This document shows positions 4,861 through 18,906 of a stretch of DNA of 31,381 nucleotides, in pieces. Numbering within the stretch: the first letter of the stretch is position 1; the number at the start of each line of letters is the position of its first letter. The DNA is from a virus. Its lineage: Duplodnaviria; Caudoviricetes. The stretch spans positions 1 through 31,381 of IMG/VR virus record IMGVR_UViG_3300046000_001751; one strand, 5' to 3'. The notes under the pieces are model-generated. The model searched no databases and was not told the origin of the DNA. It saw only the letters and a list, made by a program, of their open reading frames with translations. Made by a program: the position numbers and the translations under genes.

Positions 4861-6720
4861 CTAGATAAATTGTTTGTTTTGATCTGCGATTAACTGGTCA
4901 ATGTTGACCACTACACGCTTTCGTTTCTCAGCTGATGTAAGAAACGGATTCTTTAGATGGTGTGAGTTGTACTGACCGTAGTTGAGCATCTCACGTGCTC
5001 GGATCTCGCAGAACCACAACGCCATTACTAAGTCTGTCTTACCCTTAGTAGTAGGTGTCCAAGTGATTAACTGTTCGATTAACGCCTTAACGTTTTCAGT
5101 TTGGTCACTAGGTAAGTGAATAAGGTTGTCTCTGTGGTGCTTGCCATCGTGTTGCTTGGTGCCGAACAGAGTTGACATTGACGCGACACCAAAGCCTGCA
5201 TCCCACTTGTTGTTGCCTGTATGGTGTTCCCGCAGTAACACTCCGCGTGATGCCAAGTGTTGTCTGATTCCTTCATCTTGTGTGAGGAAAGACTGGAACG
5301 CATTACGTTCAACAATCCACTCAGACGGGCCGTATAGGGAAGTCCAATTAAATATAAGGTCACGAATATCGGCAGGAGACGGTCTAGTAATCTTGATAGC
5401 ATCTACTATGTACCTCTTGTTGCTATTGCGATCTACTGCATAACAAATAGCTGCAGTATCACCAATCATCGCAGGGTCAAGTCCACAGATAATTGAGTAG
5501 CCACCTAAGTCACGTGGGTGACCAGGGTTACCAGCTACCAATGGACCGGCCTTACGCATTCCATCAATGGAGCCGCGTACACAGACTGGATCAAAGGCAG
5601 AGTTCTCCGATACATCTTGCTGTTGATAGACTAGCGCCCAGGTGGATGTATCCATCGCTTGGCGTTCGTTGTAAAGGTTACGTCCAGACCAGCGTGGATA
5701 TAGACCGTCTTCATCTTTGTCAGCTTCTTCTTGTCCATCAAATGGAGCATCTGACTTAGGCCAAAGCGTTACCCACTTGTCAGGGTCTTCATCAGTTTCT
5801 AAAAGTGCTGGCATTGCAAGATAGGTCCAAGGGACAAGGCCACCTGGGTATCTATCCTCTTGGCGAAGCTCACGGTACAAGTCAACGCTTGCTACACGAG
5901 TTCCAATAATAATAAGTTTACCTGTTGGGTTAAGACGAGAACGTACGTCCTGGGTTAACCACTTGATCTGACGCTCAAAGTCATTGGCGTTAGATAGAGT
6001 CACCGCATCATCTACGATAATCATATCTGCACGCTTACCGTAGATCTGACCGCCGATACCGACGGCTTCGATGTTTGGGTCCTTTTCGCTGGACTCACGT
6101 AGCTCATCACCGAAGGTGACGCGGGTAGCCTGCCACGAGGCTGTCTTAGAGTTAAACCCTACGCCAGCAGCGTACGCACTTTGTAGTTCTTCATAAACTG
6201 GGTGTGTAAGGCGTTGCTTGATGGCGTAGAGAAAGTCTGCTGCTAGTCGCTGAGTTTGGGAAACAATCAGGACTCTAAAGTTGGGGTTGCGTGCAACCAT
6301 CCAGGTTACGTAGTCCACAGTGATTGTGATGGACTTGGCGTGGTTGGGCGGAATGTTGACAAGGATACGGTTATTAGCCAGACCCTTTTCAAACTTCATA
6401 GCCGGATGTAGCCAGCCGGGTTCGCGGCCTTCGATTACATCTACGATGTTCTTCTGATGGGCAAAAGTTTCTGAGTGTAGGAAGCGTTTGCGGAATTCGA
6501 CGAAGTCGATGTCGTGGACATCGCCACCTGCAAACTGCTTATCCTTAAGACCGAGCCTGGTTCGGTCTACCTTGTCTGCAAAAATCTTATCTGTGCGACG
6601 GTAGTACTCATAAGTCTTGATGGATTTGCCAGCAGAAGCCGTAGCGGCTTCAATGGTCATACCCTCTGCAACGCAGCCAAGGATAATACGCTTGGCAATA
6701 TCTGCTGAATTTTCAGCCAC
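4861..6720 (-). CDS. terL: Terminase large subunit with an N-terminal HTH-like extension
   Basis: Walker A-like NIPPNHAKS, G-x-RAD-IIVDD Walker B, IIGTR coupling motif, nuclease GLDPA and D-x-VMA motifs, AGGAG SD. Confidence 0.92.
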   Translation of the reverse strand: MAENSADIAKRIILGCVAEGMTIEAATASAGKSIKTYEYYRRTDKIFADKVDRTRLGLKDKQFAGGDVHDIDFVEFRKRFLHSETFAHQKNIVDVIEGREPGWLHPAMKFEKGLANNRILVNIPPNHAKSITITVDYVTWMVARNPNFRVLIVSQTQRLAADFLYAIKQRLTHPVYEELQSAYAAGVGFNSKTASWQATRVTFGDELRESSEKDPNIEAVGIGGQIYGKRADMIIVDDAVTLSNANDFERQIKWLTQDVRSRLNPTGKLIIIGTRVASVDLYRELRQEDRYPGGLVPWTYLAMPALLETDEDPDKWVTLWPKSDAPFDGQEEADKDEDGLYPRWSGRNLYNERQAMDTSTWALVYQQQDVSENSAFDPVCVRGSIDGMRKAGPLVAGNPGHPRDLGGYSIICGLDPAMIGDTAAICYAVDRNSNKRYIVDAIKITRPSPADIRDLIFNWTSLYGPSEWIVERNAFQSFLTQDEGIRQHLASRGVLLREHHTGNNKWDAGFGVASMSTLFGTKQHDGKHHRDNLIHLPSDQTENVKALIEQLITWTPTTKGKTDLVMALWFCEIRAREMLNYGQYNSHHLKNPFLTSAEKRKRVVVNIDQLIADQNKQFI

Positions 6721-6794
6721 GTAATCTCCTAAATGTTATGGGGGACGGGCCGAGATCGATTTAATTAGCTGCGTCGGAATATTCGATTAGCTGT

Positions 6795-6952
6795 CAAGTT
6801 GATAGAACTATCCCAACTAAAAGCACCGCTAGTGTCGGGCTTAGCGCCCGAACGAGCCACAGCGAAGTGAGGGGTAAGTCAGCGCTCGTCCTAGGGGACT
6901 CGCGAAGGGTAACCGTAGCGAGCTGGACGGGGCTATCTCAATTACCGCCCCT
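6795..6952 (-). ncRNA. Candidate structured leader RNA or structured DNA element upstream of terminase
   Basis: At least five adjacent or nested stems: 6929-33/6947-51, 6899-6903/6918-22, 6888-91/6925-28, 6852-57/6884-89, 6835-40/6846-51. Preceded by an AT-rich TTATATACAGT. Confidence 0.45.
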
Positions 6953-6996
6953 ACTGTATATAAGGCAGGAAATTTTATCGATTTCTCGTTTTCACA

Positions 6997-7014
6997 ATGT
7001 GACGTTAGTCACAT
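6997..7014. promoter_or_regulatory. CRP/GlxR-type binding site
   Basis: ATGTGAC-GTTA-GTCACAT contains a perfect TGTGA-N6-TCACA. Confidence 0.75.
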
Positions 7015-7158
7015 ACAGTAAAACCGCAGGTCAGAGCTATAATTGGATCTCACTTTAGTCGAAATATTTTGGTACGGTACACAGTACATCCCCCTACTAA
7101 ATTCAACAACCCCGGGTAGGCGTGCCGTGCTGGAGGAGCAGACCCCCACCCCCTGCCC

Positions 7159-7199
7159 TGTGGATAACTGGTCAGACCTGTGGATAAGGTTGTGGATAA
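7159..7199 (-). promoter_or_regulatory. Three perfect DnaA boxes
   Basis: TGTGGATAA (= TTATCCACA) at 7159-7167, 7179-7187 and 7191-7199. Confidence 0.85.
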
Positions 7200-7249
7200 C
7201 TTTTGGGCTGTCTAACCCCTCGGCACTATTTAACAATCCCCTTTCCCTG

Positions 7250-7266
7250 ATTCAGTAACCTCTCAG
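7250..7266 (+). promoter_or_regulatory. MprA-type box 1
   Basis: ATTCAG-TAACC-TCTCAG, close to the mycobacterial MprA repeat TCTCAG-N5-TCTCAG. Confidence 0.5.
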
Positions 7267-7321
7267 GATTCAATAAGCCCTTTACAGTTGGCAAAGCCGT
7301 CACCATTCACAGCAATCTCCC

Positions 7322-7351
7322 AAGTTACTACAGCCCCACACCCAGTAACTT
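7322..7351. repeat. Inverted repeat AAGTTACT-N14-AGTAACTT
   Basis: Perfect 8-bp arms. Confidence 0.6.
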
Positions 7352-7365
7352 AGCACCTCCAACTG

Positions 7366-7379
7366 GTTGAACTTTCAAC
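7366..7379. promoter_or_regulatory. Palindromic operator-like site
   Basis: GTTGAA-CT-TTCAAC. Cognate factor unknown. Confidence 0.5.
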
Positions 7380-7439
7380 TAACTCAACAGCCCGACACCC
7401 TTTGAAATGTCGACTTATCGACTCGGTTATCCCTGTCAT

Positions 7440-7456
7440 TCTCAGGTAAGACTCAG
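7440..7456 (+). promoter_or_regulatory. MprA-type box 2
   Basis: TCTCAG-GTAAG-ACTCAG, 11/12 match to TCTCAG-N5-TCTCAG. Confidence 0.6.
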
Positions 7457-7508
7457 GATTCTGTTATCAAATCTTTACCAAATAAAGGGCAATAAATGCC
7501 CTCAAATG

Positions 7509-7538
7509 TTGTCGGTATAGTCCCGTAGGCATTAGACT
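7509..7538 (+). promoter_or_regulatory. Sigma-A-type early promoter
   Basis: TTGTCG-18 nt-TAGACT, about 55 nt before the first + strand gene. Confidence 0.6.
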
Positions 7539-7592
7539 CAGCACATCAAAGCAAATCGTTTGTTTTGAATTAACCGCAAAGGATGCAAATAA

Positions 7593-7781
7593 ATGGCTAA
7601 ATACACTGTTTCTTTCAAAGTAGATACTGAGTTCCACTATCAATCAAACAGCAATAGAAACCTTAGTGATGCAGAAGTTTTGGAAATTGAAATCAAGGAT
7701 TTGATTCAAACCGCTGTTTTGCCAGCCCTTGACCTTCAACTAGTCCCACTGACTTTCACAGTAAAGAAGGCGAGAAACTAA
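7593..7781 (+). CDS. Early hypothetical protein
   Basis: 62 aa, AAAGGA SD, TAATG coupling to the next gene. Confidence 0.75.
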   Translation: MAKYTVSFKVDTEFHYQSNSNRNLSDAEVLEIEIKDLIQTAVLPALDLQLVPLTFTVKKARN

Positions 7782-7945
7782 TGACACGCAAAGACTATGT
7801 GCTTATCTCTCAACTAATGGAGCAGGCATTCTATTTAGACGACTCACAGCGCGAGACACTTTCAAAGGATTTCGCTGATTTCCTTTCATTAGACAACCCA
7901 CGCTTTGACCGCGCCCGATTCCTTACCGCTTGCGGGGTGAAGTAA
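7781..7945 (+). CDS. Small phage protein of MTRKDY...DNPRFD type (54 aa)
   Basis: MTRKDYVLISQ...DNPRFDRARFLTACGVK, coupled on both sides. Motif pattern familiar from phage early genes. Confidence 0.8.
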   Translation: MTRKDYVLISQLMEQAFYLDDSQRETLSKDFADFLSLDNPRFDRARFLTACGVK

Positions 7946-8028
7946 TGATTGAAACCTACTGTGAAGAGTGCGATAACGGCACCGATACACCTTGCACCGC
8001 CTGCCTATGGGAAGAGGGGGCGAAGTAA
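7945..8028 (+). CDS. CxxC...CxxC microprotein (27 aa)
   Basis: MIETYCEECDNGTDTPCTACLWEEGAK, TAATG overlaps on both sides. Confidence 0.65.
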   Translation: MIETYCEECDNGTDTPCTACLWEEGAK

Positions 8029-8150
8029 TGGACAACGGAACAATGATTGACTTGATTGAGGAAGCAATCCACACCGAGGGCGACCTGCTCAGTGATGAGC
8101 AAGTCCTCGACATCATCGAGGGACTACTGAAGAAGAGAGAGGGCAAATAG
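8028..8150 (+). CDS. Acidic microprotein (40 aa)
   Basis: MDNGTMIDLIEEAIHTEGDLLSDEQVLDIIEGLLKKREGK. Confidence 0.7.
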   Translation: MDNGTMIDLIEEAIHTEGDLLSDEQVLDIIEGLLKKREGK

Positions 8151-8159
8151 TTATCCACA
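8151..8159 (+). promoter_or_regulatory. Perfect DnaA box
   Basis: TTATCCACA, immediately after a stop codon and before the ribozyme. Confidence 0.7.
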
Positions 8160-8170
8160 GCTTTTGAACA

Positions 8171-8222
8171 GACCGAAACACCCGCGAGGGTGTCCATCCG
8201 TGAAGCGGATGCTGATGAGGTC
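8171..8222 (+). ncRNA. Hammerhead ribozyme, type II topology
   Basis: GACC-GAA-[ACACCC gcga GGGTGT]-C^[CATCCG tgaag CGGATG]-CTGATGA-GGTC. All core nucleotides and three perfect stems are present. Predicted cleavage after the GUC at 8194. Confidence 0.95.
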
Positions 8223-8245
8223 AGAACTAGGGAAAGGGTTACAGA

Positions 8246-8614
8246 ATGTGCGATAAATACAATGGCTGGACAAACCGCGAAACGTGGGGGCTAGCGCTCC
8301 ACATTGACAACGACCAAGGGCTACAAGAAACCGCGAGCGAACTAATCGGTCAGGCATTCCTAGAGAACATTGACACCGAGAAAGAGGACGGCTGGCAAGA
8401 TGGGCTTTACGAGGCAGAGAAAGCCCTCGCGGATTGGGCGGATGACATCTTCTCGCCTGAGTATTGGGGGCAAGAGACTCTTTCGGCTGGTCTGCTCTCA
8501 ATGCTGAAAGATGTCGGCTCACTCTACCGCGTGAACTTCCGCGAGATTGCCGAGAGTTGGTTAGAGGATGAGATTCAAGGATTCAAGGACGGAAAGTATA
8601 AGGAAGAGGAATAA
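8246..8614 (+). CDS. Acidic early protein with YNGWTNxETW motif
   Basis: 122 aa, GGAAAGGG SD, N-terminal motif familiar from phage hypotheticals. Confidence 0.85.
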   Translation: MCDKYNGWTNRETWGLALHIDNDQGLQETASELIGQAFLENIDTEKEDGWQDGLYEAEKALADWADDIFSPEYWGQETLSAGLLSMLKDVGSLYRVNFREIAESWLEDEIQGFKDGKYKEEE

Positions 8615-8778
8615 TGGAACTTCAAGAGGTGGACACGCTCAAAGACCTTAAAGAATGGGTGGAGGAGAATATGCAAGGCGCGGAGGTTTACGAGGATATG
8701 TACGGCACGTTAGTAATTCGCACCAACCTAATCACCACTATGGGCGGTTACTTACACGAGAGAGAGGGCGAAGAATGA
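8614..8778 (+). CDS. Hypothetical protein (54 aa)
   Basis: MELQEVDTLKDLKEW...EREGEE, TAATG and ATGA coupling. Confidence 0.75.
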   Translation: MELQEVDTLKDLKEWVEENMQGAEVYEDMYGTLVIRTNLITTMGGYLHEREGEE

Positions 8779-8924
8779 TAGCGGTGGCAGTCTTTTGTGA
8801 GGGTTGCGAGAGAGAGATTGAAACAATGGCAACCTATGAAAGCTTTACAAACTCAGTAAGTTATGTGTGTGCAAATTGTGGAGAGACATCAACCGAGGGC
8901 AACTGGAAAGAGGAGGGCAAGTAA
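8775..8924 (+). CDS. Zn-ribbon microprotein (49 aa)
   Basis: CEGC...CANC. Start moved to the coupled ATG at 8775. Confidence 0.7.
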   Translation: MIAVAVFCEGCEREIETMATYESFTNSVSYVCANCGETSTEGNWKEEGK

Positions 8925-9103
8925 TGGATGACTTCGACAGAATGGTTTACGAGATTGAGATGAACGCTTGGCGCGAGTTAGGCGCACAAAGGGCGAAAGA
9001 GAGAGAAGAGGCTGAAGAAAGGCAAGGAATGAAAGATTATTGTAAAGATTGCGGTCAGGTTGAATGGTTTTGTATCTGCAAGAACGAGAGAGAGGGCAAG
9101 TAA
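8924..9103 (+). CDS. Microprotein with C-terminal CxxC...CxC (59 aa)
   Basis: MDDFDRMV...CKDCGQVEWFCIC, coupled. Confidence 0.7.
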   Translation: MDDFDRMVYEIEMNAWRELGAQRAKEREEAEERQGMKDYCKDCGQVEWFCICKNEREGK

Positions 9104-9324
9104 TGGCAACTTATTATGTATCAAATGAGAACGGCGACTGGTGGACGATTGACACCGCCACCGCGCAAGGAGATACCCTGTTCGTTATCAGCGAGGCAGA
9201 CCTAGCGCGAGCAGTTGCACAGGAAAACCCCGACGAAGATGAGATTGACATTGATGGGTTGGATAAGTTAGAAGATGTTATTCGTGAGTACGGTACGGCT
9301 CAGACTGTGGAGGTAATCGGATGA
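9103..9324 (+). CDS. Acidic hypothetical protein (73 aa)
   Basis: MATYYVSNENGDWW..., coupled start at 9103. Confidence 0.75.
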   Translation: MATYYVSNENGDWWTIDTATAQGDTLFVISEADLARAVAQENPDEDEIDIDGLDKLEDVIREYGTAQTVEVIG

Positions 9325-9488
9325 GTAACTTAACGCTAAGAGGTTGGGTTGTGCTGGTAATTATCCCAAGCTTTTTATTACTGGTAGGAATGTGGCAGGT
9401 GGCGAGCCACCTATGGTATGTAGGAGAGGGCGGCTGGCTTGGCTACTGCTGGGGGACAATGACTGAGTGCTACGAGGGAGGACTATAA
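9321..9488 (+). CDS. Small membrane protein (55 aa)
   Basis: MSNLTLRGWVVLVIIPSFLLLVGMW...GYCWGTMTEC. One TM segment, GGAGG SD. Confidence 0.75.
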   Translation: MSNLTLRGWVVLVIIPSFLLLVGMWQVASHLWYVGEGGWLGYCWGTMTECYEGGL

Positions 9489-9749
9489 ATGGAAATCAAG
9501 GGAGTAACAAAAGAACAGACCGCATACGATAAGCGGATTACATTTGAGAGAGAGGGCGTGGAGTACTCAGTACTCTTGCACTGGGATAGTTATGACGGCT
9601 ATGAATTGCACTTCTTGGATGGCAGAAACTTTATTGCTGACCCTGAGTGGGCTGTTCAATGGCAAGATTCTCAGCAGTATGGAGAAGAGAGCCTTGAATA
9701 CACGCTAGATAGTTTGACCGAGGAAGTATTGGAGGCTTCTTACCTATGA
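9489..9749 (+). CDS. Hypothetical protein (86 aa)
   Basis: GGAGG SD, in operon. Confidence 0.8.
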   Translation: MEIKGVTKEQTAYDKRITFEREGVEYSVLLHWDSYDGYELHFLDGRNFIADPEWAVQWQDSQQYGEESLEYTLDSLTEEVLEASYL

Positions 9750-9889
9750 AAGATAAGTGCAGGTTTTGTGGATTGCGTGGGCTAGTGCTGTCCACCATCA
9801 ATGCAGACTATTCGTGCGAGCATTGTGGAGAATGGCAAGAGGCTGTACTTAATAGCGCGTGGGAGGTAGTGGGCTATGAGCTACGGTAA
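9746..9889 (+). CDS. Zn-ribbon microprotein (47 aa)
   Basis: MKDKCRFCG...YSCEHCGEWQ. Confidence 0.7.
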   Translation: MKDKCRFCGLRGLVLSTINADYSCEHCGEWQEAVLNSAWEVVGYELR

Positions 9890-9995
9890 ATGTTGGGTCT
9901 GCGGTAGAGTAATGTCCGGCGATAGTCAGACGATTGAGGGCAAGGTTAAATGTGATGGCTGTGGCTGGGTATCAGGGAAGGATGGTAGTTACTAA
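9876..9995 (+). CDS. Zn-ribbon microprotein (39 aa)
   Basis: MSYGKCWVCG...KCDGCGWVSG, GGAGG SD. Confidence 0.7.
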   Translation: MSYGKCWVCGRVMSGDSQTIEGKVKCDGCGWVSGKDGSY

Positions 9996-10141
9996 TGGAA
10001 CTGAACGACCCAGTGTTTTATGATGATGCAATTTGGACACAGTGCAATACCTGTGATGAGTACTTTGATGAGAGCAAATACAACTCTCGCACCTGTGCAG
10101 TGTGCGAGGACAAAGAGATAAAGGGAGAGAGTAATGAGTAA
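9995..10141 (+). CDS. Zn-ribbon microprotein (48 aa)
   Basis: MELNDPVFYDD...CNTC...CAVC. Confidence 0.7.
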   Translation: MELNDPVFYDDAIWTQCNTCDEYFDESKYNSRTCAVCEDKEIKGESNE

Positions 10142-10256
10142 GTGTCCAACCTGTCACCGCTGGCAGGGCTATGAATGCCCTGTTAATTGTGGAGAGTTTA
10201 ATTCTGTTGGTGTATGTGAAAACTGTGGACTAAAACATAAAGGAGGAAGCAAGTGA
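10134..10256 (+). CDS. Cys-rich microprotein (40 aa)
   Basis: MSKCPTCHRWQGYECPVNCG...CENCG. Confidence 0.65.
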   Translation: MSKCPTCHRWQGYECPVNCGEFNSVGVCENCGLKHKGGSK

Positions 10257-10471
10257 ATAGAGAGTATTTACAGGCTAAGTTTGACCTGTGCATCAACCAA
10301 GCTGAGAAGGATTTACAGGAGCAGGAGATAGCGCGAGCTATCAAGAACCTACAGCGTGCCAACAGTGCTATGTCTCGCCTGTTTGATTTAGAGGAGGAGG
10401 TTATCTGTACTTTCTGTAACGATAACTCTAAGTCCTGCCGTGCTTGTGATGACAGTTATGAGGGAGAGTAA
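10253..10471 (+). CDS. Helical protein with C-terminal CxxC...CxxC
   Basis: 72 aa, AGGAGG SD, GTGA overlap. Confidence 0.75.
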   Translation: MNREYLQAKFDLCINQAEKDLQEQEIARAIKNLQRANSAMSRLFDLEEEVICTFCNDNSKSCRACDDSYEGE

Positions 10472-10722
10472 TGAGTAACATCTACACCATACACCCACCT
10501 AAGTCAGACTTGATTCTATTCTATGAAGTGGTAGAGCCTGACAACGGCATACGCTGGGGCGGAGGAGATGTTAAGTCTGCTATCCAGTGGCTATACCTAG
10601 CCCCTGTTGGCAGTCGTATACTAGTCTCAGCGTGGGATAGTGACGAAGAGGATGCCCACTTAGTGGGTCAGAGCATTGACATAACCGAGCTGGTTCAGCA
10701 CGCGAGGGAGGTAGGACTATGA
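10471..10722 (+). CDS. Hypothetical protein (83 aa)
   Basis: Coupled, in operon. Confidence 0.8.
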   Translation: MSNIYTIHPPKSDLILFYEVVEPDNGIRWGGGDVKSAIQWLYLAPVGSRILVSAWDSDEEDAHLVGQSIDITELVQHAREVGL

Positions 10723-10802
10723 CCTATGTATTAGGTTTGCTCGTGGTGATGCTGATAGCATACGCCTTGATAGTGTGGGAGGACAAGATAAATGGAGAGT
10801 AA
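10719..10802 (+). CDS. Single-TM microprotein (27 aa)
   Basis: MTYVLGLLVVMLIAYALIVWEDKINGE, GGAGG SD, ATGA overlap. Confidence 0.65.
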   Translation: MTYVLGLLVVMLIAYALIVWEDKINGE

Positions 10803-11079
10803 ACAAGTAAGCGGTAAGCAATCTATTCACTACCGCAACTATCGTAGAGCGAGAGACCGTGCGCTAGTGCGCCTTGCTCACCTGTACCCCGACGATTACA
10901 AGCTGCTGCTTGTGGAAGAGAGAAAGTCAGATGAGCAACAAGGCAAAACTTGGATTGGTGTTACTGATAATACCCGCCTTACTATTACTACACACACACG
11001 GGCGAACGCCGTCCCTACACTTGCCTCACATACCAGTGATGGAAGCGAGAACGAAGGCAACAATGGAGGAGAAGCGTGA
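10792..11079 (+). CDS. Basic hypothetical protein
   Basis: GGAGG SD, YRNYRRARDRALVRLA segment. The 3' half overlaps the SLT gene. Confidence 0.65.
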   Translation: MESKQVSGKQSIHYRNYRRARDRALVRLAHLYPDDYKLLLVEERKSDEQQGKTWIGVTDNTRLTITTHTRANAVPTLASHTSDGSENEGNNGGEA

Positions 11080-11350
11080 GAACAAGGCACTTATCATTAG
11101 TTACCTCAACGCACTCGGTTACAACGACAACCACATCCAATGTGCTATCACCTTATGGACCCGTGAGAGCCGGCTTGACCACCTCGCGGACAACCCAAGA
11201 AGCACAGCTTACGGAATTGCTCAGCTCCTTAGAGAACGTAGTAGCCAACCTGAACTCCAAATCCTCCACGCTGTGCGATACGTTGAGCACCGCTATTCTG
11301 GGAGTTTCTGCCGTGCTCTCCGCCACTCCGACAGGGTCGGCTGGTATTGA
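10931..11350 (+). CDS. Membrane-anchored or secreted SLT/lysozyme-like transglycosylase
   Basis: N-terminal hydrophobic segment, LWTRES (catalytic Glu), STAYGIAQLL, Y-x3-RY and terminal GWY. Confidence 0.85.
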   Translation: MSNKAKLGLVLLIIPALLLLHTHGRTPSLHLPHIPVMEARTKATMEEKRENKALIISYLNALGYNDNHIQCAITLWTRESRLDHLADNPRSTAYGIAQLLRERSSQPELQILHAVRYVEHRYSGSFCRALRHSDRVGWY

Positions 11351-11439
11351 CCAGACCTGTGATGACTGCGGTGGCGACTTAGTGGCAGAGGGAGAGAGTA
11401 AATGTTTGGATTGTTTAGAAGCTATGCTATAGTTTCGAT

Positions 11440-11513
11440 AGAAGGTTTCTAACCCTTTCCTTCTTCGAGCGGAAGACCCCATCAGTAACGGGAACTGGTG
11501 GGGTTTTCTATTT
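11440..11513 (+). ncRNA. Candidate sRNA with an anti-SD loop
   Basis: Extended -10 TGcTATAGT (11425-11433), hairpin AGAAGG/CCTTCT with a pyrimidine loop, followed by an intrinsic terminator. Confidence 0.55.
11472..11513 (+). terminator. Intrinsic terminator of the early operon
   Basis: GAAGACCCCATCAGT-7 nt-ACTGGTGGGGTTTTC, then TATTT. Confidence 0.8.
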
Positions 11514-11521
11514 GCAAAGAC

Positions 11522-11587
11522 AAAAAGCCCTAGCCATTAAAGACTAGAGCTTGTTGCCAGCACTCAACAGGCGGGCGCCTGCCTCGT
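11522..11587 (-). ncRNA. Candidate CGAGGCA sRNA 1, ending in an intrinsic terminator
   Basis: TATAAT (11594-99), taaact, A-CGAGGCA..., hairpin GCTCTAGTC/GGCTAGGGC, then T5. Confidence 0.55.
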
Positions 11588-11594
11588 AGTTTAA

Positions 11595-12179
11595 TTATAG
11601 CTTACGCAACCACACTTGTGAATTGATAGCAAGGGTTTCATACTTACCTGCGTGTCGGTCTAGGAACATAGAGATACCTAGCTTGGGTGCGTGTATCTCC
11701 AACCCATCAGGGTGTGTCCACTCGTAATCATCAATAGCAAGTATGCCGCCTGACTTGAGAAGATCCCAGCTCAGCTCTGAATCTAATAGAGCAGAAGCAC
11801 TGGTGTGGTGTGCATCAACGTAGACAAAGTCAAAGCTGTATAACCTATTGCGTTGCTTTAATAAAAACTCTTGCGTTGTGGTGCGGAAGTGACCCACGTT
11901 ATCGTATGCCTTGACCTTATCAAGATAGGTAGAGTAGACATCTGAGAAGTCCATCTCTTCCTGGATAGGTTCATTAGGCGCACCTTCCCACGTATCTACA
12001 TCAGTCAGGGTAGAACCTTCGCCAGTTAATACGTTCTGCAATAGCCAAAGGCTAGCATCACCGGTGAATGCACCAAGCTGTAAGTAACTCAGCTCAGGCT
12101 TATCAGCTTCGCCTAATAGAAAGTGCTCGAAGTTATACTGAGCAATCTCTTTGAACCAGTTGGGATACTTAACCGCCAT
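11595..12179 (-). CDS. Class I SAM-dependent methyltransferase (Methyltransf_24-like)
   Basis: LQLGAFTG motif I, VDTW, FDFVYVDAHH, LKSGGILAIDDY. Start MAVKYP with GGAGG SD. Confidence 0.85.
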   Translation of the reverse strand: MAVKYPNWFKEIAQYNFEHFLLGEADKPELSYLQLGAFTGDASLWLLQNVLTGEGSTLTDVDTWEGAPNEPIQEEMDFSDVYSTYLDKVKAYDNVGHFRTTTQEFLLKQRNRLYSFDFVYVDAHHTSASALLDSELSWDLLKSGGILAIDDYEWTHPDGLEIHAPKLGISMFLDRHAGKYETLAINSQVWLRKL

Positions 12180-18348: not shown

Positions 18349-18906
18349 CTAGAGTCTTTCTTGTACTACTAACTGTAAAGGCTTACCAGTGTTAGCGTCA
18401 AGTACCGAAGCAATCTCAACAGCTTTACGGGCGTGTCTCTTTGCGTAGGCTAACTCCATATCAGGCTTAATGATTGAAGCAAGATAGCCAAGAGCAAACT
18501 GACCTCCACTACCAATGCCGTACGTTCCGACATCGCTTTGGAAAAAAGAGAGATCGCAAGCAACCCGAAAGATATTACCGTTAAAAGCAATGAGATAATC
18601 AAAACCGTCATCTTTATCCACCTTGTTGTAGTCGTAGTTGTTGTCGTTAAAAGCTGTGTTAATACTGGGGATTACTTTTTTTCCCATAAACTGGACTGGG
18701 TCGTCACCTCTATAGGTCGGTGGCTTCCAGTTGTAGGAAAGGATGTCACCTGGTCTGGTATCACCTGAGATACCCACGAGGAACTTACCTACCTCTACGA
18801 TCTTGGGCGTAGTTATGGCAAGAGTCACGAGATTGTCTTCTGTGATCTGCGAGTCTGCAACTAGCACAGCGTAATCAATACCTTGGATACCTGCGATAGT
18901 TGTCAT
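18349..18906 (-). CDS. HslV/proteasome-beta-like Ntn hydrolase
   Basis: N-terminal MTTI, ADSQIT, KI, GISG, GIGSGGQFALG, D-x-NTG. Confidence 0.85.
   Translation of the reverse strand: MTTIAGIQGIDYAVLVADSQITEDNLVTLAITTPKIVEVGKFLVGISGDTRPGDILSYNWKPPTYRGDDPVQFMGKKVIPSINTAFNDNNYDYNKVDKDDGFDYLIAFNGNIFRVACDLSFFQSDVGTYGIGSGGQFALGYLASIIKPDMELAYAKRHARKAVEIASVLDANTGKPLQLVVQERL

Follow-up and report, generated by a model that had tools for sequence, protein, structure and literature searches.

A conserved hairpin at the end of the early genes in uncultured relatives of Planktophila phages, likely a small RNA that lowers leading early genes

Does a short RNA encoded at the end of a phage's early genes pair with the ribosome-binding site (RBS) at their head, and is that one RBS, lying just behind a ribozyme, its dedicated target? 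The question is raised by a 31,381-nt stretch of viral DNA (IMG/VR record IMGVR_UViG_3300046000_001751; hereafter the window), in which an earlier, sequence-only reading had proposed a ribozyme-plus-sRNA switch. On this contig of a tailed phage, a PHROG scan found genes for terminase, primase, helicase, a sigma factor and the tail; there is also a WhiB gene, for which a scan of our genome collection returned no match. The window is syntenic with F5 and E7, described in the available part of PMC10202952 as isolated Planktophila phages (the SLT-like protein is 46% identical), so that its host is likely a freshwater actinobacterium. A proteasome/HslV-type peptidase gene at 18349-18906 on the - strand is also common to the isolated Planktophila phages.

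A rightward block of small genes (7593-11432) and a leftward replication block converge at about 11430-11600. The early genes at issue run from 8246 to 11350 on the + strand, beginning with a DUF7249 gene (8246-8614; Pfam PF23907, E = 2e-9; PHROG 871), the first uncoupled gene past the ribozyme, and ending with an SLT/lysozyme-like gene (11039-11350; PHROG transglycosylase matches). They are chained by overlapping or abutting stop and start codons, as had been noted, at 14/14 junctions from 8614 to 10792, and the downstream genes carry SD-like sites of their own. Against cultured phages, tblastn of the DUF7249 protein gave no match and blastn of 11400-11620 gave nothing better than E = 0.7. 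The non-coding stretch between the terminase and the early genes (7140-7250) holds a GC-rich tract and repeated TGTGGATAA words, which we take to resemble DnaA boxes.

At the end of this chain, all three parts of the proposed RNA were recovered. An extended -10 (TGnTAnnnT, here TGCTATAGT; 11425-11433, + strand), preceded by a weak -35 (TTGGAT, 11406-11411) and overlapping the stop codon of an ORF at 11076-11432, predicts a start near 11440. It is followed by the anti-RBS hairpin (11440-11464, + strand), whose 13-nt loop occupies 11446-11458 (TTTCTAACCCTTT), and by an intrinsic terminator-like hairpin (11471-11513, + strand; stem 11471-11509) that would close both the RNA and the early operon and that likewise follows in relatives. 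The fold of 11440-11513 is more stable than that of shuffled sequences (z = -3.67). A look-up of sequencing runs turned up none on record as RNA, three of them being contig sets that are probably DNA, with small shares. A consensus promoter/terminator scanner run on the window listed neither the extended -10 nor the terminator at this locus, and an Rfam scan found no family for the sRNA at the gathering score, nor at E up to 5 over 6700-11700. The terminal part of the ORF overlapped by the -10 (11349-11432) reads as a short peptide rich in Cys, found behind the SLT-like gene in relatives too, and its last codons, to 11432, form the -10 element.

A second candidate small RNA lies convergently at 11520-11622 on the - strand, with a promoter (11/12; 11622-11594), a variable hairpin, a conserved GAGTGCT(A/G)GC and a terminator (11552-11525; fold z = -3.68). 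It recurs in relatives, in 37/77 of which an extended -10 lies within 230 nt downstream, mostly ~83 nt from the hairpin. Its GAGTGCT motif presumably resembles half of a CIRCE operator. This candidate is not tied to the anti-RBS mechanism.

The partner proposed for the hairpin loop is the RBS of the DUF7249 gene (8229-8241, + strand), the sole member in the window's early region of a phage-specific class of extended RBSs, the GAAAGGGTTA class, which is defined across relatives. The complementarity is exact over 11 nt, TAACCCTTTCC at 11450-11460 being the reverse complement of GGAAAGGGTTA at 8231-8241, and the duplex fold contains the 13-bp extension with one G·U pair that the sequence-only reading had described. 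By itself the 11-nt match proves nothing, because ~1.2 such matches are expected by chance (79 words x 62.7 kb / 4^11, 31 kb on both strands); it is the only match of that length for 11425-11513 elsewhere in the window, where four unrelated 10-mers of the same stretch also find matches. The AGAA letters flanking loop and target read as had been described, but we rejected them as evidence, since the outer flank belongs to the hairpin stem, which varies in relatives, and the match is thus incidental. When the loop was scored against 952 candidate start regions, 8246 ranked first (-19.0 vs -16.7 kcal/mol for the next), and the predicted binding gain of the whole RNA on the cleaved leader is about -14.7 kcal/mol.

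The cleaved leader would arise from a type II hammerhead ribozyme at 8171-8222 (+ strand; Rfam RF02276, Hammerhead_II 8171-8230; fold z = -3.66). The core (CUGAnGA, GAAA and GUC) and the three stems are present, open at stem II, and across 11 aligned copies the core is invariant and stem II covaries; the score of 31.8 bits (E = 0.0012) falls under the Rfam gathering score of 37. The position of the GUC predicts a cut behind C8194, by which the 8246 mRNA would keep a leader of 51 nt. In one relative (L047), two type II hammerheads (1190-1225 and 1482-1519) lie 300 nt apart in a single early region.

If the loop matters, it should be found in relatives. Among 179 loci collected, the hairpin was present in 116, forming 80 groups; since 75 of the stretches had been selected by the loop pattern itself, we took the recurrence figure from loci fetched by the neighboring gene region, where 43/74 groups carry this loop and 31 another loop or none (the latter assigned by eye; 8 further groups did not reach the slot). 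In 41 distinct hairpins, all with 13-nt loops, longer and shorter loops being left out, 96.9% of the stem cells are paired, and 39 cells carry double changes as compared with 8.5 in shuffles (0/500 shuffles reach this number); the count of stem pairs with a double change (5/7) was reached by 178/500 shuffles. The stems also tell the strand: 50 distinct ones contain 25 G·U and 0 A·C pairs when read on the + strand, so that the folded molecule is the + strand RNA. The loop is nearly fixed in sequence while the stem varies, so that a conserved structure exposes a conserved seed, as in trans-acting base-pairing sRNAs. From these comparisons we conclude that the hairpin is a real, uncatalogued + strand phage RNA element. 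Rfam scans of 13 and 6 relative loci returned nothing apart from one tRNA, and neither the hairpin nor the RBS class occurs in the syntenic Planktophila phages, E7 being covered over its whole genome and F5 over a 14-kb stretch. Six exact matches to the loop pattern in the genome collection were dismissed as chance, there being no such hairpin at these sites.

These features bear on a reading without any RNA-RNA pairing, in which the hairpin is a mere 3'-end stabilizer or the sequence is a protein-binding site, in DNA or RNA, used in both orientations. A related word, AGGGTTAGAC, does occur on both strands of a non-coding divergent region, and base-level covariation between loop and target is lacking. 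Yet a stabilizer has no need of a fixed loop, and the G·U bias reflects selection on a + strand RNA fold whose loop is the complement of the RBS and not a copy of it, leaving this reading with a very slight probability.

The sequences preceding the hairpin suggest more than one way of producing the RNA. An extended -10 occurs 3-9 nt before the stem in 16/66 distinct contexts, as compared with a background of 0.5%, and TAnnnT in 27/66 as compared with 10%. In the remaining 39/66, which have no TAnnnT at the expected place, a stop codon closely precedes the hairpin, and these copies would be the 3' end of an early mRNA. This arrangement, together with the overlap of the window's -10 with an ORF end and with the lack of any listed + strand terminator from 8246 to the hairpin, speaks for an alternative in cis, which the sequence-only reading had also raised: the early mRNA's 3' end would fold back onto the RBS beside the 5' end that its own ribozyme makes, which would close the mRNA and restrain re-initiation. 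We consider this very unlikely, for the extended -10 sits at start-site spacing in the 16/66 contexts of this allele and in 29/29 listed loci of another (allele C), one 3' end cannot meet the several targets found per phage, and 1.6-4 kb of translated RNA separates the two sites.

Relatives that lack this loop carry in the same slot other pyrimidine-rich loops behind the same type of -10, or the terminator alone, and alleles are swapped between close relatives (e.g., L012). The other alleles support a real sRNA gene in the slot, as far as their sequences can tell. Allele C, found directly after the SLT-like gene (L130, L142, L143, L163, L205-L316), has the loop CATCCTCCTTTC, which has 9 nt in common with the 3' tail of 16S in three small actinomycete genomes, and an extended -10 was read by eye in all 29 of its loci listed; a scan for allele E yielded no new family loci and an SLT gene in 2/16. 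For none of the alleles B-H did we find a long target in the own genome. Could the whole series be general anti-Shine-Dalgarno RNAs, mimics of the 16S tail that reduce translation in the host or serve as decoys for nucleases, with the match to phage RBSs a by-product? Allele C, with its promoter, its 16S-like loop and no long phage target, would fit, and alleles B and D-H are pyrimidine-rich too. In the window allele, however, it is the non-16S part of the loop (UUUCUAA) that matches the phage RBSs, and 401 actinomycete genomes, among which the true host may not be included, show no enrichment of the pattern; we therefore hold this explanation to be decidedly unlikely.

That the loop is aimed at this type of RBS and not at SD sequences in general, as the sequence-only reading required, is borne out by the start regions of relatives. 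The loop matches at least 9 nt in 60/875 distinct early-gene start windows and in 0/306 windows of leftward genes, counts that are not independent, as the windows stem from related phages. The matches are restricted to RBSs of uncoupled early genes: 57/60 precede genes with an upstream gap above 20 nt or no called upstream gene, and 504/774 of the poorly matching windows are coupled. With the SD-like core held fixed, the loop's TAAC ranks first of 256 four-mers, and when the loop's 5' part is permuted, only 2/420 arrangements, the real one among them, yield at least as many matches at 9 nt. In six relatives the match is exact over 14 nt, up to the start codon, as compared with 11 nt in the window. 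The form GAAAGGGTTA-N2-6-ATG was found in 10/401 genomes of the actinomycete class sample as compared with 13 matches for a reversed control; the class is thus at chance level in the actinomycete genomes searched, i.e., private to the phages by this measure, with the proviso that the true host may lie outside the sample.

Each phage has 1-3 such RBSs, and the genes behind them are unrelated small genes, which does not support a dedicated ribozyme-plus-sRNA switch acting on one RBS. Upstream of 65 targets we found a hammerhead in 9, an extended -10 in 7 and other contexts in 49, many of the latter being folded RNAs without an Rfam match. Nor do ribozyme and sRNA form a fixed unit: in a selection of hammerhead-plus-RBS loci (24 distinct, 19 reaching the slot), 16 carry this loop, 1 has none and 2 have other alleles, so that 3/19 do without it; when the window's near-identical copy is removed, the loop is present in 15/18 as compared with a 58% baseline (p = 0.023, uncorrected). 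The pairing first proposed is therefore one instance of the element, in which the ribozyme is optional. In its core and three stems the window's hammerhead resembles the known type II ribozymes, from which it departs by its sub-gathering score; its self-cleavage is predicted from sequence, and it is an optional neighbor of the target and not of the sRNA. Ribozymes near phage genes are known, and the reason for their presence is described as not known in the available part of PMC10085705.

Two of the other folded elements recur at the hammerhead's position. The first, just upstream of target RBSs in L060, L062, L098, L103, L111, L119, L123 and others, has a possible pseudoknot between an upstream CTAGGT and an ACCTAG in the loop of a GCCGG hairpin; it takes the hammerhead's place, has no Rfam match and is a candidate processing element or ribozyme. 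The second (L013, L017, L041, L057, L065, L096, L117 and L140) consists of TTAGTG, a long hairpin and a TCTTACT hairpin, a set that we take to recall the motifs of the hatchet ribozyme in a different order; Rfam gave no match in L013 or L123.

The position of the targets, at sites of entry that follow ribozymes, promoters or further folded RNAs, would also suit a positive or protective pairing, in which the RNA shields processed 5' ends or helps ribosomes load on the private RBS; for the start-associated repeats of cluster K mycobacteriophages, binding to phage RNA or protein has been proposed with the sign left unknown in the available part of PMC3203893. The duplex, however, covers the SD and the spacer to the start codon, which is the geometry of repression by B11 (PMC10470900, available part), and we give a positive role little chance.

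Loop and target tend to occur together, the target being found in 42/59 phages with this loop as compared with 1/33 without it, while in 17/59 loop-bearing phages the available DNA holds no target of at least 9 nt. Most phages without the loop fall in two clades, and when the comparison was corrected on supported branches of the tree, 6 independent pairs remained, in which the target changes the same way in 3.3 and the opposite way in 0 (sign test, p = 0.25); the presence link is thus not significant after tree correction. At the level of single bases, the compensatory changes between loop and post-ribozyme SD that the sequence-only reading had suggested looking for did not emerge: the target change fits in 3/16 variant loops (L047, L048 and L129; mean quantile 0.52, p = 0.63), which is not above the null, and base-level covariation was rejected. 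The loop tracks the family consensus rather than each phage's own site.

This last pattern raises the possibility that the main target is other phages, i.e., that the RNA serves in exclusion or competition by silencing the early entry genes of co-infecting relatives, its pairing with the own RBS being secondary. The window's loop fits the relatives' RBS in 14/14 positions and its own in only 11, following the family consensus instead of its own target; the 17/59 carriers without a target of their own and the swapping of slot alleles between close relatives (L012 again) point the same way, and there is a precedent in c4 of P1/P7, which underlies heteroimmunity (PMC12197685, available part). On the other hand, the RBS class is rare in phages without the loop (1/33), which fits self-regulation, a carrier would be handicapped by its own target, and a consensus-like loop is explained just as well by mosaic swapping of early cassettes. 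We regard exclusion as the main role as unlikely.

We favor instead, at roughly even chances of being right, a trans-acting sRNA, or an mRNA 3' end, that represses a phage-private class of RBSs. An RNA of about 74 nt would be transcribed from the extended -10, or, in copies without a -10, the hairpin would be exposed at, or released from, the early mRNA's 3' end. Its loop would pair with the phage's own GAAAGGGUUA(GAAA) RBSs at the heads of early gene chains, where a pairing of 10-14 nt would outcompete the roughly 6-7 nt available to the 16S tail at the site; the duplex, covering SD and spacer, would block translation initiation and so repress the gene. Coupled genes downstream would fall too, by a polar effect that may be small because they have SD-like sites of their own. 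Such an RNA could serve as a delayed negative feedback that winds down early expression. The hammerhead would be one of several upstream elements that create an entry point, and not a required partner. Since the RBS class is common to the family, the RNA would also hit co-infecting relatives.

Similar logic is known from two systems, like which the RNA would work, judging from sequence, but to neither of which it belongs. In the 6C/B11 RNAs of actinobacteria, C-rich loops repress several targets in trans by pairing with their RBSs (PMC10470900, available part), and the present RNA shares the C/U-rich hairpin loop directed at RBSs, with repression predicted from sequence. As the same part of that source has it, 6C possesses two loops with C strings and broad host targets, whereas the phage RNA has a single 13-nt loop, with a run of three C, before a terminator, and addresses a phage-private RBS; Rfam gave no 6C match at gathering, nor at E up to 5 over 6700-11700. 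The c4 RNA of P1/P7 is phage-encoded as well; its loops complement an RBS region of the phage and block translation, and differences in its specificity are tied to immunity, but it controls one antirepressor mRNA in temperate coliphages (PMC12197685, available part). In contrast, the present loop is matched to a class of RBSs that precede early genes unrelated to one another and located 1.6-4 kb upstream, the target gene in the window being DUF7249; no antirepressor was found among 41 window proteins scanned, and the Rfam C4 model gave no match at gathering, nor at E up to 5 over 6700-11700. A literature search yielded no description of this RNA; PMC5737381 or PMC10690425 could hold it as an unnamed prediction, and in six supplementary files of the latter there was no match.

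A third parallel comes from the cluster K mycobacteriophages, which carry phage-specific start-associated RBS repeats (SAS) with one reverse copy in K1, a repeat whose partner is left open in the available part of PMC3203893. There too an extended, phage-specific RBS precedes non-structural, uncoupled genes, and the K1 reverse copy, read on the sense strand, falls in the loop of a predicted hairpin; the SAS sequence is different, and its 11-19 copies per genome (same source, available part) compare with 1-3 here. In Anaya (L320:31780-32060) we found the reverse SAS copy in a predicted 10-nt hairpin loop within a conserved intergenic region of several hairpins, matched by 165 records; its local fold is no better than shuffles (z = -0.67), and the anti-SAS loop is kept in 5/11 aligned cluster K genomes, three others having another pyrimidine loop and three none. 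The K1 loop differs from ours in lying inside a folded intergenic region of roughly 270 nt. That region (L320, L322-L330) contains an invariant TAGACT, with the anti-SAS loop in K1 members, and Rfam found no family in it beyond a terminator. We therefore take the parallel as an analogy and a lead and not as homology, and the K1 anti-SAS loop may act in cis.

In broader terms, dozens of uncultured relatives keep this hairpin at the end of their early genes, where, by the sequence evidence, it likely represents a small RNA that lowers the leading early genes. A wider version of this idea, which we put forward as doubtful, is an addressable switch: a private extended RBS would head each early transcription or processing unit, and a single RNA, encoded in a slot whose alleles can be swapped, would shut off the whole class, in the phage itself and in co-infecting kin. 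If true, it would also account for the SAS repeats of cluster K mycobacteriophages and for their single reverse copy in a hairpin loop. The cluster K parallel opens to test, in a phage that can be grown on a laboratory host, the question of the SAS partner left open in PMC3203893 (available part). The loop/RBS pair is short and, as a class, absent from the actinomycete genomes searched, which makes it easy to test and a possible orthogonal regulator. Such control has been described so far mainly for single antirepressor mRNAs; here, an RNA aimed at a phage-only RBS code would set the timing of the early program in phages related to those of the most abundant bacteria in lakes.
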